A DNA stretch of 62,447 bases, filler included, from Candidatus Omnitrophota bacterium (GCA_043812495.1; 8 parts of 7 records of this genome joined end to end with filler, not necessarily neighbours in it), one strand, 5' to 3'. Shown: positions 5,906 to 28,582, counted from the first letter of the whole stretch. Notes: generated from the letters alone by a model not told the origin. Numbers and translations: made by a program.

Positions 5906-6006
5906 NNNNNNNNNNNNNNNNNNNNNNNNNNNNNNNNNNNNNNNNNNNNTTAATTAATTAANNNNNNNNNNNNNNNNNNNNNNNNNNNNNNNNNNNNNNN
6001 NNNNNA

Positions 6007-9000
6007 AGACAAACTACCGCCTTGCTGTCCTCCGCGAGGGGCTATGTCCTCGGCGACGCCACAGGAAACAACGTGCCCAGCTCCCCATGGGCCCTTCAAA
6101 ACATCGCCCTCAAGAGAGCTGACCTTGCTCCTCATGCCGTCTCAGCCCTTGAACAGGCCTTAATAAAAGGAAACACCGGCGCCCTATGGGCCCTTCAAAA
6201 CATCGCCCTCAAGAGAGCTGACCTTGCTCCTCAGGCCGTCAAAGCTCTTGGGAAAGGCATGGATAAAGGCAGTACAACAAGTTTTGAGGCCATGACCAGG
6301 ATCGCTCAAGAAAAACCTGACCTTGAAGAAGAGCTTCCTTTTGAAACTCAAAAAGCTTTCTTATGGGGAAAGAACAAGCTGCCTGTAGCTTACGGAATTT
6401 ATCAGCAATATAAAGACCAGGATAGTCCCAAAGCTTTTATTGAGGAATTAATACGTGCGTCCCGGGAAACAATTGCCTCACCATTCGATTTCAATAACGA
6501 GGAAGACGTTTTATCCGCATTCATCGGTATCAGAACCGAGGGCATCACCGATGTCGATTTCGACGAATTCAAAGAACGTCTTGGAAAACTTAAGGCATTC
6601 GAACAGGTCCATCCCGGCTACTGGGCCAATCTTTTTAAGAAAAGCGATTATCCCGTTATCCGCCTAGCAAGCCAAGGCAATCCGTTAGATATCAGCCAGG
6701 TTGACGAAGACGTGCTTGCGTTTCATCGCAACCAGCTGTCGGAGATCCAGTCGCACATGAACGATTTGAGCTTGCCCAAAGAGCTTCTGGGCCAAGACTA
6801 TGGTGACTTTATCCAAAGGACTTATGCCTATGTACAAATCCGCAAAGAAAATCCAAAAACTCCGATCAACAGCAAACTCTTGAAACAGCACATTAAGTAT
6901 AAGCTGAAAGACAAGACCGTTTCCGATATCGAAAAAGATATCACACAACTCAAAGACCGTACACTTATCAACCAGGCGATGTTTGCCGTGGCCCGAAGCA
7001 TGAGCCAAAACTTCAGCGCCCAGAACGCCCAGCCTTACAGAAAATTGGCGCGCGATATTATCCTCGCCAATGAATTCTCTGATGATTGGGCACGGCACAT
7101 GGCCGATGACGATCCGCTTACAAAAATAGAAACATTCAATAGCTTCTATGAAGACGCCAAACATCATCTCCCCCTAAGCCTGGGGCTCTCTTTGGATCAA
7201 ATACCCAAGCTCAAAGGGGAATTCGAAATATTTACCAAAGACCTCTTTAATGAAATCAGCAAAGCCGTCATCACCAAAGAACAATCAACGGATGGTTACA
7301 CGCTTACCCCGGCCGGATTCTTAGGTGTCTTTCGAGGCCGCGCGGGCATCATCGATTGCTCGTTTGATGTTGATGACAAAAGCGTTGTTGATGGCAAAGG
7401 CGATGCCTATACACGGGCTCTACATGAAGACACGCGATACTATCTGGTGAAGAAAGGAAGCAGCCTTAAAGGCTATGTCGGTCTCCAGGAAGCTCAAGAT
7501 GATCAGGGAAGAAAAATCCTCGCCATTGACACCATCAATTCTCCGTCTCTCAACAGCTCGGAATTGATCCAAGAACTCTTAGGGAAGCTACAGGGTGTTG
7601 CCCTGACAAAGGGTTTTGAAGGCATTGCCTTGCCGAAAGACTTAGACGCCTCCTTTAACTTTGATAACGATGAAATCGTCAAAGCCTTACCAGAATACCG
7701 CAAAGCATCTTCTGTGACCTTGCGACCCATTCATCAGGAATCCTGGAACAAGCTTACGGGTATGTTCGGGAAAGATAAATATAATTCTATGGAACAGGGT
7801 GCATTTAAGTTAGTGAAAAACATCGCAAGGCCGGGCGCGAACCAACCCGTTGCTACTGTCCGCGCCGACCAGGCCTCTTTGACCCGCGCCGACCAGGCGT
7901 CGCTAAAAGAAGATATAAGTCGAGTAGAAAAAATTGCCAGGGATGCATTATTGGAAAGTTTATATTTAAGTGGTTTTCAATTAAGAACTAACAAAGAAAG
8001 AGGAAGGCTCAAGAGATTTTTTGGTAATCCAGGCCATTCAATTAGAATATCTAGAATGTATCCAGAAAAAGAAGGAAGGCTCCAAAGATCTCGTAGTGGA
8101 TTGTCTGGCCGTATAGAATATATTGTCGATTCAATAAAAGGAATTGAAAACAATCCTCAAATATTATTAGATATGGAAGACGGTAGAACTAGAGTTACAG
8201 CAGCTAGTGATCATTCCTTAGCTGGGGATTATGCCTTTGCGCCTCCAAAAGGTACGATAACAATACCTTTGTTCGCAGCAAGACTTATGTCAGATGGGGA
8301 TATTACTGCAATAGTTGGACACGAATTTAACCATTTGGCTAAACGTCATGCAGGATATAAAAGCATTAGCGATGTCGTCGAAGTGGATGCAGGAAATCAA
8401 CCGGAGAGGCAACTTGAAATTTTTGGGTTGAGCTCTCGTTGGGTTCGATCAATAAGACAAATGGCAAGAGATTTTCTTGATCGGGGGTTCACTCCAGAAG
8501 AAATAAAAGAATTCATTTCTCAAGGCAAAGAACTGGAGGCCGATCTCGATGGATTGAAATTAGCTTTTCGACTTGGATTCGATCCATCTCAAGTCGCAAG
8601 CGAGTATCTTAAGGCATCTAGAATAGCTTATGAGAAAGCAAAAAGTGATGGAACGCTCAAGAAAAGCAGAAGAACAGTTTCTTATCAAACTCACCCTGGC
8701 GATGGAGTAAGAAGAGCTTTTCTTGAGCAAAAGGCATTGGAACTCAAAGCACTGGGAGGAGAATATGCCGGGGATATTATAAAGCGGACTAACTTATGGG
8801 CCTCTATCCTCGCCGACTGGGCATCGCTGACAGAAAGCGTTCAGCCGTCAGCCGCCAGCTCTCAGCCCGACGTCGCCAGCCTTTCATCTGTCAACGGCTC
8901 GGCCGTAATCGCCTCAAGCATGCCTATTGTTGCGGGCACGGCTGATGTTATGGTGCATGCCATCAAAGACGGCGGGCACGCTGTCAGGGTCACGCGAGGC

Positions 9001-12000
9001 GATCCTTTCACGGACGCCGGGACCATTAAACTCTTGGAGCAAGGCGCGAGCGTTATTGCTTTAACAGAAAAGGCCGGGCGGGGGATAGCCCAAAGATTAG
9101 CTTTGGAAGGCGGTCAAGTGGTCGCGCGAGACGAAATCGATTTGTCTAAAATGGAAAGCCTGGAAAAACTTGAGGAAGCCAATGTCATTTTTGTCGGCAA
9201 TCATAAGACTGTCAGAGACCTTGCTCATCTTCCCGCCATAGGTAATGATGTAACAGGCCAAGTGGTTCGACAGCTTCTCATATCATCCATTATAGAGAAC
9301 ATCGACTCGATAAAAGTTGCCAAATCCAAAATCAAGCCCCAGGCGCCGCCTCAAAATGAACAAACCGTAAAAACCAGCCAAAGACCCGCAGATGATCCAA
9401 CAATCTCTATCCGCAACGACTCTGCCTCCCTCACGCGCGACATCTACCGCGAGCTCAGAAGCCAAATCGGCGATGACGTGGAAGTGGATGAAAAAGACTG
9501 GAGAGCAAACAACGCCCGCCGTTATGAACATTATATTGCCCGAAGATTAGGATGGAAAGACAGCATAGGAACATTTAGAGAGACACTTGATGATTTTGGG
9601 TGGAGCTTCAAGGAATTGATCTCGCCCAAGCAAAGACACATCACAGACTCCCTCATCCGCAGCCTTCGAGACAGCAATCTCAGAGACGTTAAAGGCAGCG
9701 CGTTTGAATATAAGCCGGGCCAGATCGCCGCGATTTATGTCGCGGCCAAGGCTCTCATCGAAAAAGACCCGACGGTTGTGGCCAAAGCCATCGGGACCGG
9801 CAAGACCAATATCGCGATGGCCGCTATCCACATTACGTTTGATGTGATTGACCGCGTTTGGTGGCGGCGATTAGCCAGGCAAATACCCGGCCCAATCTCC
9901 AAGTGGTTACAAAAGAGAAACGTTATTGAAATCCATCTTTTGGATAAATTGAAGAGCCAATTCCTCGTTGATCATTTCGGTCAATACCTGCAGAATGATC
10001 CCGATGTGGATGTGCGTGTGCTTGGCGCGCCCGAGGACCCGTTTGGGGACGCCGCCGATGCCGTCAAAAAGGGCGGCCACGCGTTCATGCAGGTCAGAGA
10101 CCAATCTTTGATGGAAGAGCAGGCTATACGCGCGTTGAAAAAAGGCGTTTCCGTTATCGGCATATCGATGGCAGGCGAAAAAGGCATTGCTCAAGAATTA
10201 AGCTTGCAAAATGACCAGGTGGTTGTCGTGGACGAAATCGATTTATCGCAACAGGAAAGCGCGCAACGACGTCTGATCGAGAAGGACAAGGTTGTTTATA
10301 TTATTAGCGAGGAAACGCTCCAAGACCTGGCGGATATTCCGGCGACGCCCGACAATCAGACAGCGAATGTCATCCGGTCGCTGGTCCAATCTTCCATCAA
10401 AATGGACAATGAAAAACATCAATACATTCCCTTAGATGTCTATAAACCTCTTTGGAATAGCGAAAAAGGAAAAAATGGAGAATACGACTTTGTTAAAATA
10501 AATGATGAAGAACTGGCCAACAATCAACATGCAAAATTTGAAGTCCGTTTAGTAGACGAAAAAGCCGTTGCCCACCGCGACCGGGCCAAGAAACACAAGG
10601 GCAAATTCAACAAGTTTAAATTCGCTTTCCACGAAGATCCCAAGAGAATCCGCAATGCCGTTATTGACGACCCGCAAGCTCTGATGAACCAGCCCTCGAG
10701 CGTTATCGCCAAGGGCCAGTCCTATCAAGAGCAGTTGGCCGACATCAAGCGTTTGGTTAAAGAGGAACAAATTGATGAAGAAGCCGCCAAGCAATGGCTT
10801 GATTCGATTCCGCAGTTTGTTGAGAATATTTATGATTATTTGAATCGGGCCAGGGAGCAGGGAATACGCGACCCAAAAGACGGGAAACTGAAAAAAGTTA
10901 AAATCACATGGGCCTGGAGCAACATCATGAAGGCCCAGAATCCGTTTGTCCGCATGATCAAGCTCTCAGATAAGGACACCGAAGACGTTGTTGATCAGCT
11001 CTACGAATTGGCCAAGAATGAGAACGCCGAGTATCTCCAAGAACAAGCCGAAGCCATCAGGGGAAGTTATTTGCAGGAGCACGCGGGAGAACCGGATGTT
11101 GAGGCGAGGGCGCAAGAAAAAGCCGGGAAATGGCTCGAAGGCAAAAAGGGCCTGAGATGGAAGTTTATTGAAAATTTTATCAGAGAAGACGAACGCTACA
11201 ACAAATCTTTCCGGCGCCTGTCCGGCCTCAAGGCCTTTAAGCTTTTTGTGAACGCCTGGGCCCAGACAACCGGCATGGAGCTGGGAAAACATTTTTACTC
11301 GAAGTATCTTTCGAGCGAACCGGAAAGATTCCGCGATGTGAACTACAACGTGACAGGCTCCTGGGGCCAGCAAAACGCGGGCACGCATTACGGCGATCCG
11401 CTTGTCTCGGCCATGCTCGCCGTTAAAAGCGTCCGGTCAGCCCAAGAGAAGATTGCCAGCGACATGGGAGGCTGGGAAAACCTTCAGACCAAAGAAGCTC
11501 AAGAGGAATTCGAGAAAAAAGTCCATGAGCTCATTCCAAACCAGGCACAAGACGTCTTCAATGCCCTTACGAGCAAAGATGTCATGGATATTTCTTATTC
11601 GGATGCCATCAGCGGGAAGGGTTTTATTCCCGGAGATCGCATTGTCGCTTTAACCGGTACCCCTGACCGCGACAAAGCGGCCTACCAGAAAATATTCGGA
11701 AAGAAAAAGCCTATTGTTGTGATTGACAAGAACCGGTTCCTGAATTTGGATAATTCAGAATGGGTGGTTGTCAAGACGCTTGAGGAGGCCCGCGAGCGCG
11801 TTGCCCAATTCATCGACAAAGAGACGCAAGCCGACTATATCCTTTTGAATGTGCGCGGAAGCGAGGACGTCGAGGCCTTATCCGGAGAGATCAAAGGCAA
11901 AAAAGTATTTATGATCACAGGCAAGATCGAAGATGAAAAGAGGGCCCAGGATGTATTGAACGGATTCAAAGACCAGGTCCGCGAGGCCAGAGAAGGCGCT

Positions 12001-15000
12001 GTCTTTATCACCCAGGGCGATCCGACCGGCTCCAACATGTTCAGAAAAGTACTTTCTAATAATTCTGCAAAGAAGGCCAATGTTGTGCATATCGATATTG
12101 ACGGCATCACCACCCTGACCCAGCACAAGGGCCGCGTCATGGGGCCGGAACGCCTCAATCCCGCGGAAGGCGAAAAATATTTTACCGTTGTTTATCTGGA
12201 TGATCCCAGCCTGAGCGGTGACAACAGAAATGCCTTAAGAGCTATTCTGGAAGATCAGACACTCTCTGATGAGAAACCGGATGATGGCGGCCGAACAGAA
12301 CGCGAGGAGCTGCTTGCGCAGAAAGCTTTGAAAATCGCCTATCAACTGGATGCCTGGGAGGCCCTGAAAACACGCCAGCTTGCCCAATCTAAAACAACGG
12401 TCAGCCTCACCTGGTCGGAAAATTTCAAATTCAGAAAAATGTTTTATGATCAGGCGCTTTTCGGGACGCCGAAGTTAACTCGACATACCCGGGGCAATCT
12501 GGGGGTCCTTGAAAATCTGCTTGGCGAGCGATGGGTGGAGAGACACGAAAAAGGCAATCTGACGTTTCTTAATTTTATCCCCTACGCGTCCGTTCACGCG
12601 TTTGCCCTGAACATCCTCGGGAAACTATTTGGCCAAAAGTGGGTTAATAAGATCAAGAGGAACAGCCTGGACGTTCTCAATCATCTCGCGCGCTATCCGC
12701 TTGTGCGCTCATTGGCCGTCCAGGAAAATTCGCGCGGCGAGCCAAAGAAAATCGCCAAAGACGTGCTTGACCAGCATAACGGCACGGCCACACTGCACAG
12801 GGCCAATATCGAGCGAGTCGCCTATGAAAAACAAAACGAAGCAAGAGGAAGGTTCTTCTTCAACCAGGCCAAAAAACTCCAGAACTACTTAAACGACAAT
12901 AGTGACCGGGAGTCGTTTACCTGGGGTGAAATCCGCGCGCTTGTCAACGAAAAGACCGCGCTCAGGCTGGCTCCGTATCTCGATTATCCGGTGGATCAGT
13001 TTATCGCGGACATGGACCGCGTGTTCTTAAAGGAGAATAAATCAAAAGACAGAAAACAAGAATATAAGAAGCTGTATCAAAGCCGGAAAAACCGGGATCT
13101 CTTTGTCCAGTTGGCCGCGGGCCAGGACCAATTGACCGAAGAAGAAGCAAGAACGCTTGCCAAAGTGGTTCATAGCCTGCTTCTCTCCAACGGTGACGAT
13201 GCCCTGAACCTCTCCATGGACCAGGTGCTCAAGGCCTATTCTTCCGACGCGAATTTTAACGGCATATCCGCGTTAGCCAGGGAACACGAAGACTTCGTGG
13301 AGCAAAAAGGAAAAGAGAAGAATCTAGATGACTATTTTACAAATAATATTAAGGAAGGTATCTTCAATGAGGTTGGCCATGGACAGATCAGCGTCAAAGA
13401 AGCGCTTGATAAGCTCAGCGCGGATAACTTGTCTTCCAAATTAGAAGAGACAAAGAGAGAGATCGGTTCCGACCATGTCATTATTCTTGGATATCTTAAT
13501 CCACTCCAATGGTCCCAAGGCATTTCGCCGGCCGCAAGGCAAATACATCAATTTATTCTGCAAAAGGCCTTAGACCAGATGCCGCCGCGTCTTCAAAGAG
13601 CTTTCCTTGGCCGTCCCATCCATGTTGTTGAGACGCTTTCTGAAGAAACGCTCGATGAGAGCGTGTATCTTAAAGCTGAATGGCTGGAGGGCTCTTCGCT
13701 TGGGGCGCAAACGGAATTGGCCAAAGTCGGTCTGGCCGCTTCCTCCGTTTCTCATCAAACAACACTCGGAAGAGTTATCGGCCGGGTCATTTATGCCATT
13801 TCAGAAAATATCCGCGGTAAAAACCTGCATATAGGAGCGGGCGCGGGTAAAGATGAGATTAATCAGATCGCCCGTCTTGTGGGCGCGATCAATGACACAG
13901 AAGATGATCCTGAAAAATGGGATGACAGCGTCTTCACATTGGCCGCGAAAATCGTCCGGGAAGCGAATGAAATTCCGGAAATTGAAAATGAGGACCCGGA
14001 AGCCAAAGACGTCAGGCTCATCCAACAAAAAGATGAAGCCATCAAAGTGTTTACGGGATTACGCGAAAACAAACAGGAATGGGAAGAGAATAGAGAAAAA
14101 GCCAGGAGGCAATACGCCCGAAGGTTCGAAGAACCCGCAAAACCATCCTTTAAAGAAGCCACCAAGGTGCTTTTTGCCGGTGACGGCAAACCCAAGCCCA
14201 AAGAAGAAAACTCCATGATCAAGGAGTTATTCAATCATTGGTTCCCGTTTGACAAAGACGAGCGGCATATGAACTTTGGAAAGGTCAAGGTCCTTGCCAA
14301 GCCGTCATCCGTGACCCTTCTTTCGATCGCGGGAGTTCTTATCGGTACGGTTATAGGGGGGCATGGATTTCCTTTTATTAATCCCGAAGCCCTGGCCGTC
14401 CTGCCTGATGACGGAGCGATCCTTTCAGGTCTCAAGCTCCTGGCAATAGCATTGACAGGCCCTATGGTGCGCGTGGCCGTCGGCGCCGTGATGATTATTG
14501 CCCAAATAAGATTCGAAGACGCAAAAACACGTTTAGGTCATATCGGTAATTTTGCCGTCGGGAAATCAGCAATCCTTTATCCGCTGTTTGCCGCGTATCT
14601 GTCGTCTTTATCCGGTAATTACAATGTCACGGAAACACCCGGGCTCAATTATCTCTTTGCCTACGGCGTCATCATGAGCGGTTACTTAAGCGTTGTGGTG
14701 CACGAAATTGTCCACGGTCTTCAGGCGGCTTTGTTCGGCATTCGCTCAACCGGCATTAAACTGCATGCCTTTGGCGGAGCGAATTCCCTGGAAAGCATGG
14801 GCAAAACGCGCTTCCAACAGGTGATGGTCGCGGTTGTCGGTCCCTTGACCAACCTTGTTCTGGCCATAGGCGCCGCTTTGATCGCTCAGCACTTTATTAA
14901 TCCGCAAACAAGCCCCATACTGGCCAAATTCATCGGCCACGCGGACGGAAATTTCCTTGATATCCTCTGGGAAAACCTCAAAGGATTTACGCAAATCGGT

Positions 15001-18000
15001 AATCTCAACTTTATTAAATTCCAGCTTTATATCACCGTAACCAACTTGATCCTGACGCCGGTGCTGGATGCCGGCCGCATGTTTAAAGCCATGGTCTTCA
15101 AGGGCCGATATGATGAAATCGCGGCCACACGAAAAACAGTGAAATGGGGCGGCTTGCTTGGCGTTCTGGAATTCAGCGCCTTGGCCTATTTCACGGGTAT
15201 TTGGTATCTTCCGCTCTTTGGCGTAGTCCTTGCCGTTATGGGCCGCAATGAATTGCTCAACATAGGAAAACGATTCGGCCGCAAGGCCCCGAAAAATGAT
15301 TCAAGCATGCATGCGGATTTGATTCCGGGTGCTTCAGTGGTTGCAGATTATTTCAAGTCAATTTTGTCCGCAAAAGGGAAAACAGGAGCTGCTTCACAAA
15401 CAGCGGAGGGTGTCGTGGCTGACAAACGAAACGCTGAAAAAGCATTACAAGGAGCAGTTCCTGTTTTCCCTATAAATATACCCACACCGAAAAAAGGCTC
15501 GGGATTACCTCTTCCAAGTAGTCCATTTGGGCTACCAACGCCGATGGGCACTGGCTTGCCTCTGCCTATACCCATCAGTAAAGGTCCGGCACCGGGAAGC
15601 GGCACTTTCGGCGGTCAACCAGATCATCATATTATGGAATTTGCAAGAAGCGGCGCAAGTCCGGCTGATATGTTAGCCATTTTAGCCCCTGAGGACAGCC
15701 GGCAGGGTCATAAAGCGGATGTCAAAGCTAAATTAGCAGAATCAGGTAGCGGAAACACGTCATCAGGCGGAATTCATGACAATACAACCTTAGCTGCCGG
15801 ACGCTTCCCCAGCGTCCCAGGCAGTGCAAATGGTATAAGCGGGGAACCAATAACCACGGCAGTAAGCTATGCCCGATCCGCTCCTGTCGGCATAGGGACT
15901 GATAATAGCACGAGTAGTCAGGGAGTGAACAGCGCGAACGATGTGCGTTCGAGCCTGACAGGTTCCAGCTCTGAAAGAAAAGCTGAAACCGGTGGTGCGA
16001 GAGGTGTGCGCCCGAGAAACGGAAGAAACACCCACAGTTTTGCTGAACTGTCTGCCACGGGTCTTACGGATATTCAAAACGCCACGGATCTTGGTGGAAA
16101 ATATGGCTACGATCGCTCTTTATATAGAGGTATAACAGGTAATAGCGCCATCAGCATAGTCTTAGCTGATGCAAGCTCTATGAAAGCCATCAGCGAGCCT
16201 GTCATGGTTCGTGAACTGGCCGGATATAGAGCTCAAGCTGCCTTAGATCGCCAAGCAGAGACACAAGGGCTAGAGCTGCGTCAACTGCTTCAAACCCTTG
16301 GAATACGTCCTGCTATAAGATTTGATGCAGACGCCAGCTTATATGCTGAAAATGGCTCATTACCGGTGGTTCCCGGAGTGCGTCAAGAAGTCCTCACCGG
16401 GAATACGGCTTTTGAAGTCACGCCTGCCATTATAAGAGAAGTTACTAGCGGGTTAAGTGCAGTTGCCTCAGAGTTCTTCAGATCGGGCGATGCGGAAGCC
16501 GCTGCAGCCTCAGATAACGAGCCGGTAAGCCAACAAGCAATATCTTATCCAACTGGTCATGGATTAGATATTCAACCAACAAAAGAGACCAGGACATTTG
16601 GAAAAACTCCGAATACGCCACGTAGGAGTTCTCTTGCTTATAGAGCCCTTCCATTAATCATTCTTGGCATCATCCTTGTCGCTGTTTTGGTTATTATTCC
16701 TTACGACTACAATTTCTTCTATACACCGCTTTTCGCCGGAGCCAGTGCCGCCTTGCTGCCGGTGGTGGGGATGATAACGAGTACAAACGAAGTGTCTCAT
16801 CCATCTAACACTGTTTTTGTCAAAGTAATCGAGCGTCGTTACAAAAACATCAACTTCTCTCAACTTATCCGTCTGCTGTTTCTTGCGGCCATGATTCATC
16901 AATGTCTTGTGGCCACAGTTATATCGTCCGCCGTTCATTCACCCGAATATTTTATCATAAGCGGTGTTGTTCTTTTGTTGGCGACACTGGCCTTCATCAT
17001 CAACGGCCTCATTGTTGGCATTCGAGGCAAAGACGTTACCCTGCCCATCCTCTTGACCGTAGACGGAAGATTTTATTGGACATCGCCCTATTTGAAATCC
17101 GATATGAAAAAAGTCCTGATTGTTCCGGCAATCGCCTTCACCCAGGTGATATTCCCAATCGGCACCCAGGTGATATTCCCAATCGGAAGCATACCTGGAT
17201 CTTCGCCGCATTCCCTATTAACAGGGAAGCTGTATAGCGTCTTAAAGAGAATTCTTCCATTCATTATCGTTATAGTGGTTATTGCGGTTTTGTTAAACAA
17301 CCCGTCCTTGGTCTTGGATAATCTGGCCGCGGCCAGCCTGACGCCGATGCTTGGTATGTTGAAAGTAAGAGAAGATGGGCATGCTTATGAGAGCCTTCAT
17401 GAGCTATTCTACGGCAATATGTCAACAGTCCATGAATTTGAGAGTATGCTAAATACTTATCAAGCATTTGGTTTGGAAGCGGGCTTTGGAATGGATGAAT
17501 TTGGAAGATTGACCAACCCCGTATCCATCGGCCGCAGGACAGGGGTTAAAGTCAGGAATTATTTATTTAACGCCAAGCATGTCCATATTCATCCCGAAGC
17601 GGACAGATCTATTAGCATACCAGATTGTTATGGAAAAGATGGCAACCGCAGAGGGTTAACGAACGAAGCAATAATTGTTTGGGGCGCGGGCAGAGAATTT
17701 TATCTGAGCGTCATCAATCTTCTTAAGCTCCCTCGTTCTATTTATGCTGAAAACGAGAATGGAAAAGAGATATTCGATCACGCAGGTGAACTCAAGGAAG
17801 ATGTTCTTTATGAAAGGGGGATTTTGGAATTTTATCGCGTCAATGAAGATTATGCTTTACAGAAAATTTCGAGAGAAGAAGTTCGTCGCATTGAAAATGA
17901 TTTAAGACTAAAATCGCATTGGGATCGGAAGCGGGCTTTAAAGAACTGGGGTACATTGATACAAAAATATCTCGGCGATGAATCCAAAATGTTTGAATCA

Positions 18001-21000
18001 GCTATTATTCACAGAACGATCCTTAAGATTTTGACTGTTAATTCAGGATATGATTATGACCAACTTGTTGAAATATTTTTCGGCACAAAGGCATATAACA
18101 CATATATCTACCACGAAGATGTTTCATTTATCAGAGATATTTTAGAGACATTAAATGATCAATTTCTAGCTGCCGGCAAGACAAAATCTGCCAGGTCTAC
18201 CAGGGAATTAATTCTACGCATTAATCGTAAAATGAATTACCTTATTCCTTACAATGGCCAAAATGGGCAAAAAGACGGCATCACCCTCTACTCCTTCCCC
18301 GCCATTGATCCGAGAGCCGTTAAAGATTTATTTCAGTCGGTTGTCAGCCACATCCGAACAATCAGAGGCCTGGCCAAAGGCCGCAACCCCTCCGTGGCCA
18401 CCGTGGACGGCCAGACCTTGCCTGCCGATAGGCAGGCCTCTGATGATCCTTTTGCCAAAGCCTTTGAAGACCTTCCCACCGACCGCGTCTTCATTGTGTC
18501 GGACGGGCTTGCGCGGATTTTGTCCTTAGATGAAAGCGCCAACGCAGGAACGGTCGGGCAATATTCTTCGGAAATGTCTTCGGGCTTAAAGAAGGCCCTT
18601 AAAAGGGAGGAAGTTGAGCCGGAGGCGATTTCCCAACTGCTTGCGCCCGGAGCCATCTTTGTTTCGGACGCCTATGAGGGGACGAAACAACGAAAGGAAT
18701 TGGCCCATGAATTCTTCCATCGCATTTACAGGAACGGGCCGCAATCGCTTCGCGACGCGTTTAACGTGGCCTGGAATTCCATCCCCGCGGAACTAAGACA
18801 GAAAGTCATGGCAGAATTCTACCGAAATCGTTACGGTGAGTCGTTCGAGGGTCATTACAGTGAAGAAAACAGGCCGGAAGAATTCTGGGCCAATTTTATG
18901 GCCGCGATGATACAGGCTAAGGATAGCGGCCGCGGTTCGACTCCAACGCTCAGTAAAGTTATCGCCAATGACAACGTTGTGCAGGTACTTTTTAGAGAAG
19001 GATTCGCGCGCCGGTTCGAAGAAAAACTGGACGCGCTTGAAATCACGCCTGTGGAAGTGACGTTTGAATCCGATTTGCCGGTCTATGACGGCCGCATACA
19101 ATATCTAGGTGGATGGATTAACGATATCTTTGGAATTCTCGCGATTGCTATCGGAGTAATCGCTTTAATAAAATTAGTTGAAACATTAACCCCACATGTG
19201 TTCCGCGCCACGGGGCACTCCCGCAGGGAGAGAACAGAAACCAGACCACAGAGAACAGAGAAAACATATCTGCGTCATCTGCGCTTCGAATCTGTGCTAT
19301 CTGCGGTTACAAGAGGAGGTATGCCATGGAACGACAAACAAAATACCAATCGATCATCTTCGACCACGCGGTCGAATTCATCAAGGACGACTGCGTCTTC
19401 GCGGCGGGCAAAGAACCGTCAGGAAAAACCAGACTCTTTCTCATTTTTAACCACAATGGAAATATCTATTCCCGTAACGGCAGGGAGAATTCCTGGGAGC
19501 AGCTTAAAGCCAGTGACGCTCACGCCATCCGCGAGAAGGCAAGTACCGCCAACATCAAACGCTACAGCGCGAGCGGTCACTTCGAGCAAATCTAAAGTTT
19601 TCACCCTCATCACCGCTGCCATCCTTGCTTTCTTCGCCGCCACACCTCTCCAAGCCGCCGAAGCAGGTTTTATAGAAACAGATAAGTATTTTCTTATAAA
19701 GTTTATAAGTTATTTCCTCCTTGTCCCATTGGTCGGCGGGCTAGCACTTGTGATTCATGAAACGGGACACTTTACTCCATCCAAAATATTTGGCTATCGA
19801 CCGAAGTTTAATTTTGGTGGGGAGGATGCGGAGGTTATACACAAGCCCTCTGCAGGCCATTCATTTCACGGATGGAAATGGATAATAGTTTGTGCCGGCG
19901 GAATGCTTATGAACCTTACGATGGGCGCAATAGGTTACATTATTTTCTTTCAGCAAAATGTTGTTTTACTTGGAGACTACCTAACCAATATTTTCAAATT
20001 GTTTACACTAATAAATTTAGCTATGGCAGCATGTTTCTTTATTAGTTTTAGCGAGGATTCAGATATAGCCCTAGTCATTGAAGCCATCAAAAATACATTT
20101 AAACAAAACAAGATAAAGAAAAATGCTTTGTCTTCCAGAATTAATGCCAAACCCGCTCAACCCGCCCAAGCCGAAGAAACCCTCTCAGCCAACATCTTCA
20201 CGCCTTTAAACATAGCAATCGCCGGGTTCGTTGTTGTTCTTGCCGCAATTATGACCTACCGATTCTTCAAAAACCGCGCGAATTCAGCAAACAAACAGTT
20301 TCCTTTAGGCAGGGCCACAGCGGCTTACCAAATCTTTAGAGCCCTCTTCGATAATGCCGCGCAAGACATTTTCAACGTTATGATTGCCTCTCCGTGCCAG
20401 TACAAATGCGCTGAGTGCATCGCCCGTCCCGCCATCAAAGAAATTGAAGATGCAAACGAACCGCTGTATGTGGACGCACAACACCTCCGCAATCTCTTCG
20501 ATGAGCTGGCCGGATCAAACAAGGTCCAAATCGTCGGGCTCGGCGAACCGACAACCTACGGCAAGAGAGATATTTACACCGAAGGCGTAAGCCAGGACTT
20601 TTTAGACATCATCCGCTATGCCGCAGAGAGGATTAAGGAAGTCCGCATTTATACCAACGCCTATGTTGTTCCCGAAGATTTTGAACTGGCCAAAGTATTC
20701 TTCGCGCAGTTCCCCAAGAACGTTGTCTGGGTTGTCTCTGTCGACAAAGACCACAAGGCTCAGATGAAGCTCCGCACAGGAAAATCCCTAAGGAACATCA
20801 TCAAAATAATGGAACAATTACACGCCAAAGGCCTTGTGCAAGTCAACTATCATGTTACCAGAGATCTTACGGACGTTAAGAATCGCAAATTACTAAGACG
20901 TTTTGGGCTGTTCTTTGTGTCCTCCAAGAGAATACGCATGGAGACAAAAATTGGGTTGGGGGCCGCGATAGATCATGAGGATGCAAGAGATTTTGAAAAT

Positions 21001-24000
21001 GAAAAATTGCAAAGACATATAGAAACGCCTAAAAAGATTTACCCATATATCGGTATGAATGGAAGCCTTTTGACTTCAGTACACGTTGCTTTTATGCCGC
21101 GCCAGCAGCGATACGACACTGGGATAATTAGCAGCCTCTTTGATGAAACGACCAGCCCAATCGCTTATCGATCGGCCATTATTGGAAATACCCATGAGAA
21201 GCCCTTATCCGGCCTAATCTTAAACAATCTCATTTTCTCCAGAAATTATGACAAGATTTTCCGAAAAACAGCGCTCGGCCCCGATGCCATCAGAAATATT
21301 CTGCGCTCATTGAACGAGTATTTATTCGGGGATAAAGAGCAGGCCCTCGCCATGTTCGCCCAGGTCAAAAAAGAGGCCGCTCGTTGGGATGACGTTTTCG
21401 ATCCGCGCACAATCTATAACAAAACCTTTGAGTTAAGAAGTATCATGGGAAAACTTTACGCCTATCCTCCGTTCAGGGATTTCATCCGAAAATCGTTTAC
21501 GACCTCTCCCAAGACCACACTTTATGACAGATTTATCATCACAAAAGTCATCCCGATAAGAAGCAGCAAAATTATCGTTAAAATAGTTGATGAAAAGATG
21601 GTTTTCACGAGAGTAATGGCATTTATGATTGGCTTATTTCTTACTTATGTTTATTGTACTTTTGATTGTGACATGCAGACCGCATGTGTCAGGTATACGG
21701 CTATATCCGCTCTTGTCATTTTTGGTTGGATTCTTAAAGATTTTCTTGAATCTGTCAACATAGATCTAAATGGACGATATGAATATCATAATAACAGCAA
21801 GCTATTCTACTTCTTATCAGGTAATTGGTTTAATATACGGAATGCAAGGAAAGTTTCCAAATACATCGTTAGAGAATTCAAAAAAGAATTCGGAGAAGAA
21901 CTCAAAAATGTTAAATTCTTCCGCTTTTTGGCAAGTGTGTGGCTTAATGTGCAGAATGCAAAGAATGCTATCAGGAAAGCCTTCAAAAAAATAACAACTA
22001 GTATTCAGAAAGAAAACAGAAATACTCTCCAGCCTTCTTTACCGGAAGAACCTCCCCAACCCGCCCAAGCCGAAGAAACCCTCTCAGCCAACATCTTCAC
22101 GCCTGAGGCTGTCGCGGCCATCGGGCTTGTCCTCACGCTCGCGGGGATCATGATCGCGCACAACTTCTTTAAAAATCGAAGGAATTCAACACAGCGGGGA
22201 ATGAGAATTGCCACCCCAAGCCAGGGCCCGCCGGTGAAAGCGAGAATTTCCCCCGCCCTAGCCATCCTCGCTCTTTCCGCTGTTCCCGCCTTCATCATTC
22301 TTTTCGCCGTCTTCCCCGAACACAGCCTTGCGTTTATGCCGGTCGCGTTGTCTGATATTGCTTTGCCGGGATTGATGGGAGCAATAAAAAGAGAAAAAAC
22401 AGTCCAAGAGGAATCTGAAAAACTGCCGAAACAACTCTTATTGATATTGCCTAAAGTATCAATAAACGAAAGAATATACCTTTTGAAAGACCACAGAAAG
22501 ATGTCGGTGTCCCAGTTAGCAAAAGCTTCTGGTCTTTACGAAAGAGTCATCCATGATTATATAAGCGTGGCTTATAAGTTTAACATAAGCACGAGAAATC
22601 TTATTAAGCTTGCGCGTGGTTTAAGGGTCGAACCTTCATTAATCCTTGTAGGACTTACTTTTAAGAAGGCCATCAAAGGTCTTGCTCTAGCAAAGAGAAT
22701 AAACTTATGCATGGTCATCTCCGGGTACGGCATCGGAAGATTAGCAAAAAAAGTGATTCATGTGCAGTTTGAGACATTAAAAAGTTGGATAACCGGTCAA
22801 GAAACGCCGAAAACAGATCAAATTATTAAATTAGCCAGGGCTTTTGGCATTGAGCCGTTATTGCTTTGCACGGATCTCTCTTTTGAGGAAGCTATCAAAA
22901 AGAAGAGCTCTTCTGTTGGTGAAGACATTCAATTATTGAGGTTAGAGAAGAACATGCTTAGTAAGGAATTTATAAAGGGGAGAGGCTTTAGCGCAAATAG
23001 CCTTTATTCTTGGGAGAGCGGTTACAGCATTCCAAGCGCTAAATTTCTGAGAAAAATGTCCGCTGCCACCGGCATTGAAGCATCATTGCTCATGACGCAT
23101 TTTTCTGCGGAGAACTTAATGAGACAACATAAACGCACAGGGGAAAGGATAGGGGAGCTTTTAAAAATCAGAAGTATCAGCCCGGAAGAACTCGCAGGAA
23201 AAATGGACGTCTCCATTGAAGAAGTCAATGTATGGATCAACCAAGAGTCCATACCGACGCCGGAGCAAATCATCGCCATGGGCAAGATATTCGAAGTCAA
23301 CGCCTTATCGATATACACATATCTTACTTTCGAAGAAGTCTTAGTAAGAAACCGAACATTGGCCGATAGGATAATTGTTTATAGGATTTTCAAAGGGATT
23401 GATCGGCATGCATGGCTTGATCTCGCAGGGATAGCAGTGGAAACTCTGGATGATTGGGAGCAGGATCGCGCAATTCCGGATTTTGCGAGTATTGAGGTTT
23501 TAGCAAGAACTTTCGGAATCACACCCGTGGATTTGTTGAAAGGATGGCCGCTCTTAAATACTCTGAAAAGGAAAGAACAAGCCGCTGATCGCGTAATATT
23601 GGCTCGCCTATCCAAAGATTTATCCCGGAAAGAGCTTGCTAAAAAGAGCGGCCTGAGGGTCGAAAGAATCATCGCGATCGAAGAAAACAAAAACAAACCA
23701 TCTACTAGCGATCTTCAGGCCATTGCCAAAGTTTGTCCGGTCAGCTTTGCTGATTTTATCAATGGATTAGCGCTTGAACAAATAGATCAGGCAAGAGAAA
23801 CTAAGAACAAAGGATATGCAGAGTTGCCGGAAGGATTATTAAAAGCATTGCTTAAAATGTCAGTCAAGGGAAGGCTATGGTACCTGAGGAACTATAGAAA
23901 AATGTCGATAGCCGACCTTTCGAAGGCTTCCGGTGTTTCCGAAAAACGTATCAATGATTATGAAAACGAAAAAAATGGGAAAGGTTTGCTTCCAAGAACC

Positions 24001-27000
24001 ATCGTCAAGCTTGCGCATGGTTTGAGGGTCGAGCCGTCATTGATTTTTATAGGACGCCCCATCAAGGAAGCTCTTAAGGGCCTTAGCCTTGGAGAGAGGA
24101 TAGATTTATGTAGAGAGATCTCCGGATCTTCCCAGGGCGTCCTAGTACATAGTTTGCATCTAACACCACTGATCTTCAGAAAATGGATAAACAATCAGAG
24201 AACGCCAACAACAGATGAAATTATTAAATTAGCCAGATTCTTTGGCATGGAGCCGTTATTACTTTGGACAGATCTTACATTTGAGGAAGCCTTATGTGAG
24301 AGCTCTTCATTCGGTGAAAATATTCAGCTATTGAGATTAGAGGAGAACATGCTTCTTGATGAATTTTCTAAAAAGACAGGAATTAGCCAGAATGCTATTA
24401 GGCTTTGGGAGAAAAATGTTTCCAGGATAGACAGTAAGAATCTGAAGAAATTATCCGATATATTTGGCCATGAAGAGTCATTGATCTATGCAAGCCTTCC
24501 TTTGGAAAAGGCTTTAAGACGGCGTAAAATTATGGCCGAGAGAATAGAATTGCTCATGAAGGTTAGGGACATTACTATTGGGGAATTAGAGACAGAGATG
24601 GGATCTGATCAAAAAACGATCCGTCAATGGTTAAGACAAAAGAGTAAGCCAGGATTGGATAAAATCATTAGAATGTCAAAAATATTCAAAGTTAATGCCT
24701 TGTGGATATACACACACCTGACCTTTGAGGAAATCTTAAAAGAAAGCGAGAACTTGGCAGATAGAATAATTATCTTAAGAATGGATAGAGGAATAAATAA
24801 AAAAGAGTTGGCTCAACAAATAGAAGTAGACATAACTACTATTGGGGCATGGGAGACGGGAAAGATTGGCCCGCAAATCTCTCACATCCACGCTCTAGCC
24901 AGAGCCTTTGGGGCTGAAACTTCAGCATTATTAAAAGGAAAACCGCTGAAAAATATTATCCGAAGAAAGAGAAGCCTGGCCGACCGTGTTCAGCTAGCTC
25001 GCCTATCCAAAGATTTATCCCGGAAAGAGCTTGCTAAAAAGAGCGGCCTGAGGGTCGAAAGAATCATCGCGATCGAAGAAAACACAATCAAGCCATCCAC
25101 CGGCGATCTTCAGGCCATTGCCAAAGTTTGTCCGGTCAGCTTTGAGGAGCTTATTGAAGGATTAGAACTTTGGGGTGTCGATGGAAAAAAGAGCAGGACA
25201 GCGGGTGTTTACACGCTGATGCCGGACTTATTCGGAATCTTTGCGGTTGTGGTCATAGCCATCGTTTTAAACAAATTATTCAAAACATTAACCCAAAACG
25301 TGTTCCGCGCCACGGGGCACTTCCGCAGGGAGAGAACAGCCGCCAGAGGCGAGCCTCGCTCGCCTCGCTCGACGCGAGTCGAAGCGGGCCAAAGGCGGGA
25401 AACCAGTAAACAGAAACCAGATTCACTGCGCACTACATACGAGATGCGATTTTCAAGTCTATCAAGGCAATCAGGGCGGCTAGCAGGGCGGCAACAAGGC
25501 ATCAGGGCTAAGGAAGGCCACAAGACTATGAAAGGCGCCATTGACCTTGCCAGAAACTTGTTGTCTTTTGAATCCTTAAGCCTTATTAGCCTTGCTATCT
25601 TGATAGCCTTTAATAGCCCTGTTGCCTTAATAGCCGTGTTGGCCCTGTTTGCCTTTAATAGCCTTGGATTGTCAGTGAATTTATTTAATAACATATACGA
25701 AAAAAACAAAGGAGGAACACCATGGACACGAGAAACAGTAGAACCACTTATGATTCCATTATCTTTGATCACGCGGTCGAATTCATCAAGGACGACTGCG
25801 TCTTTGCGGCGGGCAAAGAACCGTCAGGAAAAACCAGGCTCTTTCTTATCTTTAACCACAATGGCAACATTTATTCGCGCAATGGCAAGGAAAATTCTTG
25901 GGAACAGCTTGACGCCCGCGACGCTCGCCTCATTAGAGAGCGTGCCGGCACCGCCAATATCAAACGTTACAGCGCGAGCCGGATTTGCTTCAGTTTCCCC
26001 TACAGGCGAACGCCGATGGCGACAGCCGAGGCGACCGGTCACTTCGAGCAGATCTAGATTAGCTCTAACCCAACCTCAAAAATCTTCCCAGTCCGCTTCA
26101 GCCGACAAAACCCTCTCAGCCAACATCTTCACGCCTTTAAACATAGGGATCGCCGTTTTTGCCCTTATTTTTATCATATCCTGGATCGTGATATCCAAGG
26201 AAAGCGAGAAGATAAGGGCCGAACTGATGAAAGAATCGGATTATATCAGAGGGATCCTTCCTTTTGATCTGGAGCCGGTTGGAATTAAACTCGATTTTGG
26301 TAGTTTAATTAGTAATCCTCTCTTGGAGAAAAGACAAATATCTCTGACAACGTTTCCCTCACTCAAATATAAAACATTTATTCATGAATTGATGCATTTT
26401 GTCTATTGTGACCAGATGAAGGTTGATGAGCAAGCTTGCCGCGGTGTCATTTCTTTAATGTGGGAAAAGAAAGCAGCAATCCCGATGATTGTCATTAAAA
26501 TTGCCTCTGCTCTCTTATGGGTTCTTGCATTTGGGATAAGCTATCTATTGATTAATCTTTTCATTGCCAAAGGTATACCTGATCTTCCAATGTGGTTTGG
26601 CCTATCGGATCTAACGATCGGAAGGGTTACTGCTATAGTCTTTGTTGGACTTGTTGTATTAAAACAAGTTCTTTGGTTTAAACAAGAAGCTTATCGGTTC
26701 TTTAAAATAAGTATTGAAGAGAATCCAAATTCAAATAGTGCTGAAGTTTGGAGAAGAACATCAGATGAAAAAGATGATTATCTAAGAGAAAATTCCATGG
26801 CCAGCCCTGATGAATTTGCGGCCGATGCATTAACGTGGTATCTCTTTGAACCAGAAGAATTCAGAGAAAGAGCAGGAAATAATGAAAATATTCGCGAGCT
26901 CTATCAAAGGATTAAAACAGGATTTTTCAAAGATGTAGAATATACGATAGATCCATCCAGTGAATCTTTACTCAAGATTGTCGTGTTAAGGAAAAATTCT

Positions 27001-28582
27001 GCTTTGCCTATGGACAGGGATTCGGATCTATCTACAAAAAGGGACGGTTCTGATCCTTCTACCCAAACCGATCAAGACAGCCAAACCCTCCTAGCTTCAA
27101 CCGGCATCCTCACGCCTGAGGCTGTCGCGGCCATCGGGCTTGTCCTCACGCTCGCGGGGATCATGATCGCGCACAGCTTCTTTAAGAATCGAAGGAATTC
27201 AACACAGCGGGGAATGAGAATCGCCACCCCAAGCCAGGGGCCGCCAGTAAAAGCGAGAATTTCCCCCGCCCTAGCCATCCTCGCTCTTTCCGCTGTTCCT
27301 GCCTTCATCATTCTTTTCGCCGTCTTCCCCGAACACAGCCTTGCGTTTATGCCGGTCGCGTTGTCTGATATTGCTTTGCCGGGATTGATGGGAGTAATAC
27401 GAATTACCTCCGCTAATAAAAATAAAATCAGTGATTTCTACAACCAACCCGGCGCCTTTCCGCGAATAAAAACCTTCAACATCACGGACTTGCTTGGAGA
27501 GGCTCTTAAGCATGGTAAAATTAAACAATCCTTCCCACTTCCAAATGGAAAGACATGGGGTAAATATGAGAGTATGCAGGTGGGAGTAGGCCTCTCCAAA
27601 ATCATGTGTGAGATTGAAATGAGAAACGCTACTGACGCCACATTCACTTTCACAAGCTATAAAAAAGATGCAAAGGGACATGATGAAGAACACAAGAAAA
27701 GCCGTTGGCTATGGACAGGGGAAGGTACACCCCAATATCAACCGGAAGAAACTGTTGAATCGAAGATAATCTCAGAAATCAGTGATTTCTACAACCAACC
27801 CGGCGCCTTCCCGCGAACAAAAACCTTTAACATCACGGACCTTCTCGGCCCAAAGGCTCTTAAGCATGGTGCAATCAAACGATCCTTTCCTCTTCCCACC
27901 AAGGGAAAGACATGGGGTAAAAATGAGGGTATGCGGGTGGCAGTAGGTCTCTACAAAGTCACATGCGAAATTCACATGGAAAGCCCTACACAAGTCACCT
28001 TCACATTCACAAGCTATAAGAAAGGTAAGGATAAAAAACACAAGAAAAGACGCTGGCTATGGACAGGGGAAGACACACCCCAATATCAGCCGGAAAAAGA
28101 TGAAAAACAAAAGCAGGAGCAAGAGAAAGCTATCAGAGACAAAATCATTGCTTTTTACAGAAGAACCTATTTTCCGCGAACAAAAACCTTTAACATCACG
28201 GACTTTCTTGGAGAGGCTCTTAAGTATGGCATTATTCAAAGTACCTTCCCTCTTCCCACCAATGGAAAGACATGGGGTAGACAAGAAAGCAGTATGCAGG
28301 TGGGGCAAGGCCTCTCCAAAGTCATGTGTGAGATTGAAATGAGAAGCGCTACTGACGCCACATTCACCTTCACAAGCTATAAAAAAGATGCAAAGGAACA
28401 TGATGAAGAACACAAGGAAAGCCGCTTTCTATGGACAGGGGAAGGCACACCCCAATATCAACCGGAAGAAGATGAAGAGTTGAGGAGACAAAAAAAGGAA
28501 GCCATTAAGAACGAAATCATTGCTTTCTACAGACGAACCGATTTTTCGCGAACGAAAACCTTCAACATCACGGACTTTCTTG
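6007..28582 (+). CDS. Giant multidomain membrane protein (>7,500 aa), partial at both ends
   Basis: One stop-free frame across the whole 22.6-kb contig; recognisable motifs (HEFNH, HEIVH, HxHx7Sx2D, HEFFH, HETGH, CxxxCxxC, Xre-HTHs, HELMH); the duplicated linker shows mostly synonymous changes in this frame. Confidence 0.9.
17139..17186 (+). repeat. Perfect 24-bp tandem duplication (TQVIFPIG x2)
   Basis: CACCCAGGTGATATTCCCAATCGG twice. Confidence 0.9.
19326..19595 (+). CDS. Nested out-of-frame small protein (89 aa) inside the giant ORF, copy 1
   Basis: AGGAGGT SD, ATG; paralog at 25722 differs almost only at synonymous sites in this frame. Confidence 0.75.
   Translation: MERQTKYQSIIFDHAVEFIKDDCVFAAGKEPSGKTRLFLIFNHNGNIYSRNGRENSWEQLKASDAHAIREKASTANIKRYSASGHFEQI
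20158..20215 (+). repeat. Re-used linker (QPAQAEETLSANIFTP)
   Basis: 48 bp identical to 22057-22104; related copy at 26101-26146. Confidence 0.85.
22092..22381 (+). repeat. 290-bp duplicated two-TM linker, copy 1
   Basis: About 8 differences from 27105-27394. Confidence 0.9.
25722..26057 (+). CDS. Nested out-of-frame small protein (111 aa) inside the giant ORF, copy 2
   Basis: AAGGAGG SD, ATG; same frame offset as copy 1; carries a 57-nt in-frame insertion. Confidence 0.72.
   Translation: MDTRNSRTTYDSIIFDHAVEFIKDDCVFAAGKEPSGKTRLFLIFNHNGNIYSRNGKENSWEQLDARDARLIRERAGTANIKRYSASRICFSFPYRRTPMATAEATGHFEQI
27105..27394 (+). repeat. 290-bp duplicated two-TM linker, copy 2
   Basis: Near-identical to 22092-22381. 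Confidence 0.9.
27427..28582 (+). repeat. Tandem coding repeats of ~351-372 bp (~120 aa), 3 full plus 1 partial
   Basis: FPRxKTFNITD..SFPLP.GKTWG..FTFTSYKK..WLWTGExTPQYQPE. Confidence 0.9.

Follow-up and report, generated by a model that had tools for sequence, protein, structure and literature searches.

Small genes nested one base out of frame in a piece of a giant Omnitrophota-type open reading frame

Results

The DNA investigated here is a stretch of 62,447 nucleotides (the window; positions are counted along it) from the genome of a Candidatus Omnitrophota bacterium, which is labeled G000 and comprises 1.94 Mb in 66 contigs at 90% completeness; its contigs carry C-numbers. Positions 6006-28582 are contig C11 in its entirety, flanked by spacers of N, and the giant frame of this contig runs through 7,525 codons without a start or a stop codon. 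As judged from its sequence, C11 fits an internal piece of a giant, membrane-threaded gene of the Omnitrophota type. An earlier note on this DNA had described the piece as variable cargo domains alternating with re-used membrane linkers; two of these linkers are almost certainly small genes of their own, read one base out of frame with the giant open reading frame (ORF).

The repeat pair 19337-19574 and 25742-25979 was found to be conserved in a frame other than that of the giant ORF. Its members differ at 34 of 213 bases, and 24 of these differences affect second codon positions of the giant frame, corresponding to third positions in the -1 frame. The two copies of the nested gene (Table 1) are 89% identical in the -1 frame compared with 57% in the giant frame, and both the codon-position and the identity comparison point to purifying selection on the nested frame. 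An own ribosome-binding site, start and stop codon in the other frame, together with an open host frame, are the features by which a nested gene of the comS type would be recognized, and all of them were present. Among the 93,478 codons of giant frame in this genome, these two copies are the only out-of-frame sense ORFs of at least 60 codons with GGAGG and ATG (0.03 expected in the -1 frame), and in the giant genes of two relatives, copies of the same family are the only out-of-frame ORFs of at least 45 codons with a Shine-Dalgarno (SD) sequence and ATG.

A leader segment was duplicated along with the nested gene; a promoter-like match within it (19145-19174, 9/12) was not above chance. No further copy of the family was detected in G000, in which mraZ is directly followed by rsmH. 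Another giant piece contains the tail alone (C65:12439-12546, 36 codons, 69% to copy 2), and this fragment of the nested gene is likely a relic of segment copying. An antisense enzyme considered at 19337-19574 was dropped, as it had no Pfam match and the conserved frame lies on the sense strand.

Table 1. Features of the C11 piece (window positions) and antisense units in other giant pieces (contig or locus positions).
Feature	Position	Strand	Remarks
Giant ORF, internal piece	6006..28582	+	Frame from 6007 open for 7,525 codons; both ends open
Peptidase M48-like domain (HEFNH)	8230..8727	+	AT-rich cargo; over Pfam cut-off
GC3-rich block with helicase-like motifs	9600..12500	+	Weak DEAD/ResIII matches only (E 0.007-0.03)
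Peptidase M50 domain (HEIVH)	14683..15099	+	Over cut-off
Leader segment duplicated with nested gene	19129..19245	+	Second copy 25231..25347, 79%
Ribosome-binding site AGGAGG, copy 1	19314..19319	+	6 bases upstream of ATG
Nested gene, copy 1	19326..19595	+	89 codons + TAA; -1 (+2) frame of giant ORF
Second M50-like domain (HETGH)	19744..20136	+	AT-rich; below Pfam cut-off
48-bp linker unit	20158..20205	+	Start of helix module 1
Radical SAM-like domain	20395..20871	+	Below cut-off
48-bp unit + two-helix linker	22057..22386	+	Ends LPGLMGAI
Cro/C1-type helix-turn-helix (HTH) domain array	22400..25190	+	AT-rich
Intergenic repeat read through in giant frame	25449..25670	+	Predicted helix; just upstream of copy 2
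Ribosome-binding site AGGAGG, copy 2	25710..25715	+	6 bases upstream of ATG
Nested gene, copy 2	25722..26057	+	111 codons + TAG; -1 frame; 19-residue insert near end
Variant linker unit + helix start	26101..26160	+	
AT-rich cargo with HELMH motif	26200..27050	+	Two predicted helices; no family match
Two-helix linker	27059..27433	+	Ends LPGLMGVI
Three tandem repeats of ~120 residues (three to four)	27400..28582	+	No known family; continue into C37
HicB-HicA units	C53:22975-23409, C20:24687-25081	antisense	
PIN or PIN_3 + small partner, four units	C42:6689-7292, C42:9128-9773, C53:6282-6900, C65:10684-11323	antisense	
88-codon gene + DUF2283	C63:11559-12047	antisense	
DUF433 + DUF5615	C19:7717-8372	antisense	
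DDE_3 transposase fragment	L160:8984-9484 (C20)	antisense	E 1e-28

The family of the nested gene was subsequently followed across the order. It forms 175 clusters at 50% identity, nearly all of 80-110 residues, and 110 matches were obtained in 89 of 151 genomes: 50 genomes hold nested copies only, 31 a copy in the division operon only and 8 both, giving 58 with nesting. A division-operon copy is present in 39 genomes (40 with G029, which raises the genomes with both kinds to 9); about 20 of these copies were assigned by coordinates only. When the surroundings of 100 copies were examined, 69 lay in a frame that is open over the whole 2-8 kb locus and 5 in long frames cut by N, while 18 adjoin mraZ and 8 stand elsewhere, 3 of the latter before rsmH. 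The order ribF-mraZ-gene-rsmH-ftsL was found in 15 loci, where the neighbors other than MraZ are what we take, from their sequence, to be ribF, rsmH and ftsL. Free genes of about 90 residues between mraZ and rsmH were seen in loci L013, L016, L020, L021, L023, L025 and L026 and further in L028-L032 and L035-L037. Among the named loci carrying the nested family, 4 of 7 are labeled Omnitrophota and 3 of 7 'Planctomycetales'; the nearest relative of G000 belongs to another genus. A metagenome search with the nested protein returned 1 distant locus.

All 74 nested copies occupy one and the same frame, none being found in the other sense frame or antisense. An SD of 5-6 bases precedes 70 of the 74, and ATG stands at initiation spacing in each of the 74 listed; the free gene has the same start. 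A strong hairpin was detected upstream of 41 of 70 nested copies (9 of 70 in controls). Near-perfect hairpins of 50-60 bases just upstream of the SD were noted in L040-L042, L046, L047, L051, L052, L054, L055, L058, L061 and L065; as a guess, these might be an RNase III site or a leader. The constant -1 frame and the hairpins near 41/70 copies would suit programmed -1 frameshifting, by which the -1 ORF would provide an alternative C-terminal tail and hence shorter forms of the giant protein, and an internal SD can stimulate such shifting, as in dnaX. However, in 74/74 copies the distance from the SD to the ATG suits initiation, the free gene shares this start, and the hairpins lie upstream and not downstream, and we regard frameshifting as very unlikely.

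The location of the nested gene varies between giant genes (codon 14,254 vs 7,051) and no fixed domain flanks it, as no flank had matches at more than 6 other loci. In 41 of 68 loci, a predicted helix begins downstream at a distance of no more than 60 residues, compared with 18% at random places. In L006, L056, L078 and L060/L080 two nested copies were observed close together in one giant frame, and in L006 the second begins right where the first ends. In a quick tree, a single branch (97) sets the division-operon copies apart. Nested copies mostly cluster with others from their own family, a pattern that speaks for vertical descent within giant genes over a long time; the tree is unrooted, and all trees reported here are quick searches with few columns. 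Since contigs of this fragmented metagenome bin break at repeats within the giant gene, an assembly artefact was also considered. Against it, linker copies have diverged by 4-20%, with a bias towards synonymous changes, the frame is open across every joint, and nesting occurs in 57 other genomes including G062, which is a single contig, so that an artefact appears most improbable.

Selection on the two overlapping frames was assessed with 72 nested copies of at least 70 residues (two short ones were excluded) and 20 free copies. Between close nested pairs, differences at positions 1, 2 and 3 of the small frame amounted to 0.029, 0.018 and 0.192, similar to the 0.025, 0.006 and 0.228 of the free copies, and among pairs sharing more than 70% of their DNA sequence, the small frame was the more identical one in 37 of 37 cases. 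The host frame contains 0 stops in 6,694 codons over nested copies compared with 66 in 1,805 over free copies, and at potential-stop sites purine-ending codons drop from 117/252 in free to 120/1,119 in nested copies. The giant-frame peptide overlapped by the small gene is rich in Ser and Thr.

For the small protein, a meander of five strands, a helix and a last strand was modelled with confidence, at a predicted local distance difference test (pLDDT) score of 89.7. It had no Pfam match, and three NCBIfam matches of single members (E>0.003) were unconvincing. The best hit among PDB sequences had an E-value of 0.37, the best VIA-align Z-score of 5.7 (AcrIF13, root-mean-square deviation 2.4, 59 aligned) lay within background, Foldseek gave nothing at E<=0.001 against PDB and viral structures, and the ESM Atlas no usable match; such blank structure searches do not establish a new fold.

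The giant frame itself continues beyond C11, whose end overlaps the start of C37 exactly over 140 bases and runs on there for 1,513 codons. In total, 16 giant ORF pieces with 93,478 codons were identified in G000, which may represent one gene or several. C45 holds a giant-gene N-terminus with 44-46% identity to the starts of the giant genes of two relatives, which exceed 43,900 and 40,400 codons and are located after ORFs that we presume, from their sequence, to be secretin- and pilus-like. In the C11 piece, 19 hydropathy peaks were taken as predicted membrane helices in our own Kyte-Doolittle scan, which is not a trained predictor, and five HExxH motifs were found, those of the M48 and M50 domains included. 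A family scan of the main frame of this piece detected no SecA DEAD domain, glycosyl transferase or NUDIX domain, and the helicase-like block had no phmmer match among the ordinary ORFs of G000. The HTH array contains an internal duplication (23602-23775 and 24997-25170, 91%), and the tandem repeats at 27400-28582 are 76-90% alike at the DNA level. Rfam gave only 3 chance-level matches on the piece, and promoter and terminator counts within 14000-28582 equaled those of shuffles (26 vs 22 and 15 vs 17). The segment 15300-16700 is rich in Ser, Gly, Pro and Ala with an odd codon pattern (GC at second codon positions 0.54, at third positions, GC3, 0.38), and its other frames lack a Pfam match.

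The compositional alternation described in the earlier note was borne out. Its five AT-rich cargo blocks have a GC content of 0.37-0.41 (GC3 0.25-0.43) and its linkers 0.48-0.57, and the spread of GC3 in 100-codon windows was 0.096; 200 codon shuffles gave 0.049 (maximum 0.063), and among 678 ordinary genes the value was 0.070. The compositional steps expected at linker borders were present as an upward step in 3 of 4 linker copies examined (GC before, in and after the linker: 0.35/0.57/0.35 at 22049-22386, 0.36/0.56/0.43 at 27059-27399 and 0.30/0.52/0.48 at 20150-20260), the copy at 26078 showing none (0.57/0.47/0.40). The near-verbatim recurrence of the 48-bp unit (20158 and 22057, variant at 26101) and of a two-helix linker of about 290-300 bp (22084-22383 and 27097-27396, 96% identical) was recovered as well, and the motifs LPVVGMI (16756), LTPMLGML (17338), LPGLMGAI (22363) and LPGLMGVI (27376) are all in place, two of the four being copies of one repeat.

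Repeated DNA makes up 16% of the piece and is confined to its second half. The 48-bp unit stands before two different helices, one helix comes after two different upstream segments, and the second helix module leads into the HTH array in one place, into the triple repeat in another and, in C65, into other sequence; the second half of the linker at 27059..27433 is 96% identical to C65:11564-11756, which adjoins an antisense antitoxin-PIN operon. Such a mosaic would be expected if linkers had been sites of recombination or duplication. The copies of the 290-bp linker differ at 9 bases, 6 of them synonymous in the giant frame, and are for this reason considered young and read in that frame. Linker profiles matched 7 copies of helix module 1 and 3 of module 2 in the giant pieces of G000, none of 1,954 ordinary ORFs of this genome, and nothing in the giant proteins of two relatives; among metagenome contigs, the 23-base core of the linker found 0 exact matches, and a look-up of sequencing runs with 18600-28500 listed none. 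The idea of linkers as homology arms holds as far as modules are duplicated, variously combined and joined to different cargo, yet the linkers are private to G000 and, given the lack of profile matches in two relatives, are not a conserved recombination site.

A reading built on the earlier note would make the piece a polyprotein effector library in which linkers are dedicated arms for ongoing shuffling and the ..G(M/A)I ends are cut by the membrane proteases of the same gene. Mosaic linker joints, GC steps and the five HExxH motifs with M48 and M50 would agree with this, and West-Roberts et al. (10.1101/2023.11.21.568195) propose, in the part of the preprint considered here, cleavage of giant proteins into several products. 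The motif occurs 11 times in 93,478 residues compared with 0.65 in local shuffles; it was defined after having been seen, and three of its occurrences derive from one repeat and two from another. Against a library, the linkers account for 16% of the piece and are private to G000, the motif occurs once in 84,351 residues of the giant proteins of two relatives, no integron integrase passed its cut-off, and among dispersed repeats the strongest is a nested gene. As for topological or processing signals, some linkers are out-of-frame genes or read-through intergenic DNA and no signals at the protein level. Linker DNA folds no better than shuffles except at 25280-25429 (z -2.2). We consider the effector library unlikely.

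Non-coding DNA is also read in the giant frame. The segment 25449-25670 is 70-75% identical to intergenic stretches on C33, C50 and C3, and palindromic folding of part of this repeat was not above shuffles (z -0.2). It is one of 20 segments of giant pieces that match DNA elsewhere in G000, and the only one for which the intergenic position was checked. Of 261 self-matches among giant pieces, 24 are frame-shifted or antisense (inverted). Further repeats were noted along the way. In C20, a 125-base element (giant-ORF bases 1847-1971) has 32 matches elsewhere in the genome and is read in frame. Consecutive giant ORFs in different frames share a 92-base repeat as their overlap in C20 (47930-33579 and 33670-2) and a 164-base repeat in C63 (35970-17005 and 17168-3), for which misassembly, a real frameshift and a gene boundary are alternatives. 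An array of imperfect 8-base repeats lies at the end of the preceding contig (5746-5902), and two families of REP-like palindromic repeats of 26 and 34 bases occur in the window (514, 676, 28733, 39519, 40648, 40675 and 61959; 2057, 40067, 44693 and 47774).

On the opposite strand of the giant pieces, 1,080 candidate ORFs were scanned and the 121 top-ranked subjected to Pfam analysis. Eight antisense two-gene units of toxin-antitoxin type were identified (loci L154-L167, Table 1), each with a Pfam match in at least one gene; the DUF433/DUF5615 and DUF2283 pairs are presumed to be such systems. An orphan partner-like gene and a DDE_3 transposase fragment were found in addition. Over 17 antisense genes, 16 of them intact, the host frame contains 0 stops in 1,591 codons where 55.8 would be expected from ordinary genes, and promoters within 1-2 mismatches of consensus precede 5 of 9 antisense units. 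In a genome-wide search with 12 families, 8 of 12 loci lay inside giant pieces, which make up 14.5% of the genome (nominal P 5e-5); the 4 outside were ParE, DUF433 and two nucleotidyltransferases, and four of the families gave nothing. The C65 operon is located between copies of the linker family of C11. In relatives, antisense nesting was seen for 8 of 29 HicA loci (the best per genome out of 95 matches; two 'free' loci contain N) and for 11 of 29 PIN_3 loci (10 genomes), with the host frame open over the whole locus in one register per family, and nested PIN proteins retain their acidic motifs as judged by eye. In quick trees, nested versus free requires 5 label changes, yet is compatible with a single origin. 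Two paralogous antisense ORFs behind near-consensus promoters were also seen (C65:24181-24537 and C53:3783-4169).

Discussion

Taken together, we somewhat favor an explanation in which the giant frame consists of unrelated cargo joined by duplicated helix linkers, two of the linkers being nested genes. That such a gene grows by taking up DNA which keeps its frame open appears probable. Homologous recombination of the ordinary kind, or gene conversion, between copies of a linker would spread the linkers and exchange cargo; a dedicated recombinase is left out of this proposal because no integron integrase passed the cut-off. Inserted DNA would be retained only where it brings no stop codon into the giant frame or loses those it brings, and if retention depends on an open frame, ribosomes must read on through the inserts. 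On the giant mRNA, ribosomes would initiate internally at the nested sense gene, whose product would thus be made together with the giant protein, in the manner of comS and srfAB. The antisense operons would use their own promoters and penalize recombinational loss of their segments, a role that toxin-antitoxin cassettes have in chromosomal integrons. Whether nested genes that are needed or addictive thereby shield the giant gene from deletion is a suggestion to which we give slightly less than even chances.

For the small protein, the mechanism would assign to a soluble beta-meander/helix protein the task of coupling production of the giant protein to envelope building or division. This step was proposed by analogy with the paralogue in the mraZ-rsmH-ftsL operon, whose position is the sole reason for favoring it, and the role is accordingly put forward as doubtful.

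Several observations weigh against this explanation. No match to the small-gene family was obtained in 62 of 151 genomes, including 8 of 8 of family f13, and the gene is therefore not universal. The hairpin is missing before the two copies in the window (z -0.8 and +1.6). Where the two genes overlap, the giant-frame peptide shows scarcely more conservation than free copies do in the corresponding frame (0.785 vs 0.746 and 0.46 vs 0.44), which makes it a stop-free spacer, and neither fold nor sequence of the small protein gave a match pointing to a function. The enrichment of 8 in 12 loci is inflated, since the first families were picked after having been seen in giant pieces, and because only C37 overlaps C11, the eight operons possibly belong to giant genes other than this one. 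In the window itself, 83 ORFs in other frames gave 0 meaningful Pfam matches and no toxin-antitoxin gene. One of the two HicA genes, that of C20, is broken by an internal stop. In relatives, 21 of 29 HicA and 18 of 29 PIN_3 loci are free, and the giant stretches of two of them (84,000 codons) contained no toxin-antitoxin-like ORF on the opposite strand that had a strong SD; nested toxin-antitoxin genes are therefore not required. As a separate observation, the 8 genomes searched of family f13 had no match to the small gene, HicA or PIN_3, and this family may lack such giant genes.

The last of these points bear on a different explanation, which accepts the nested sense gene as real and takes antisense operons and read-through repeats as selfish insertions tolerated in spacers of low constraint, the giant gene being just a large, permissive target without benefit from them. 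The broken HicA, the free loci of relatives and their two empty giant stretches would fit such passengers, as would the transposase fragment and the repeats with up to 32 matches elsewhere that are likewise found in giant pieces. Conversely, if only stop-free DNA is admitted, insertions should settle in the giant gene less readily than between genes, yet 8/12 loci lie in 14.5% of the genome; 16/17 genes are intact, five units have promoters in front of them, and nested HicA sub-lineages are common to several families, albeit in a weak tree. Passengers as an account of the whole are a possibility that we rate low; for the antisense operons taken by themselves, the passenger reading is nearly as likely as the stabilizer reading.

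In its widest form, the preferred explanation would make Omnitrophota giant genes integrase-free, in-frame arrays resembling superintegrons, with cargo swapped at linkers. Each would be a single translated frame, tens of thousands of codons long, that captures DNA in any orientation and is locked into the chromosome by overprinted genes, namely a cell-envelope gene found order-wide in the -1 frame and, on the opposite strand, toxin-antitoxin cassettes, which would be pre-adapted, stop-free and travelling between giant genes of different families. We offer this only tentatively. It would bear on how single ORFs of 100-400 kb arise, resist deletion and get translated in Omnitrophota. Stops purged across captured genes are sequence evidence for ribosomes having to run through the giant frame, and the nested genes provide handles, i.e. 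a product of 90 residues, defined antisense promoters and segments whose loss rates can be compared. As gene callers keep the giant ORF only, the small-gene family and much of the toxin-antitoxin content are probably missing from annotations.

Giant genes of Omnitrophota and nested genes in other systems are already known, and to our knowledge bacteria rarely have nested genes that are conserved throughout an order. In the literature searched, with supplements and paywalled papers outside its scope, no description of the mraZ-rsmH paralogue or of the toxin-antitoxin nesting was found. Giant, membrane-threaded Omnitrophota proteins were described by West-Roberts et al. (10.1101/2023.11.21.568195) and a multi-enzyme class by Nielsen and Lui (10.64898/2026.06.07.730766); the main texts of both preprints contain 0 mentions of 'nested', 'antisense' or 'recombination', and their supplements could mention nested genes.

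The C11 piece resembles giant proteins of the Archaeovorin type in its very long ORF, its many predicted helices (19 hydropathy peaks), its divergent peptidase and radical SAM-like domains and its breaks at repeats. Compared with the length of at least 30,000 residues of that type, it comprises 7,525 codons plus C37, and all pieces, which may or may not belong to one gene, 93,478. In place of a divergent SecA DEAD domain it has only weak DEAD/ResIII matches, and from the mixture of peptidase, SAM, glycosyl transferase and NUDIX enzymes it has M48 and M50, with radical SAM below the cut-off. A neighboring type II secretion or Tad-like system would correspond to the presumed secretin- and pilus-like ORFs of relatives.

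The closest counterpart of the nested gene is comS within srfAB of Bacillus subtilis, which, in the portion of the article drawn on here, is likewise a small gene on the same strand in another frame of a very large gene and is co-transcribed with srfAB (PMC12915044). Known here from its sequence, the Omnitrophota gene differs from comS in being about twice as long, order-wide and duplicated, and in having a free paralogue between mraZ and rsmH; the missing Pfam and NCBIfam family matches give no sign of homology to ComS.

The antisense units in the other giant pieces would pass for type II toxin-antitoxin systems, as two small adjacent genes with a toxin family stand behind a promoter. In sedentary chromosomal integrons, promoter-bearing toxin-antitoxin cassettes are enriched in the large array, as stated in the portion of Richard et al. 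(2024, PMC13108822) used here. A similar enrichment in a large, repeat-rich modular array is seen in the giant pieces, with the families partly chosen post hoc and none in the window. For the integrase IntI, TIGR02249 retrieved from this 90% complete genome two tyrosine recombinases at 89.5 and 71.4 bits, far below the cut-off of 265. Unlike integron cassettes, the cargo is fused in one frame instead of forming separate ORFs, and the modules overlap that frame on the opposite strand. Finally, Rickettsia palindromic elements are inserted in frame into genes, and the translated intergenic repeat at 25449-25670, with up to 19 further segments, is comparable to them; it differs from these elements in sequence and in that it supplies a predicted membrane helix.

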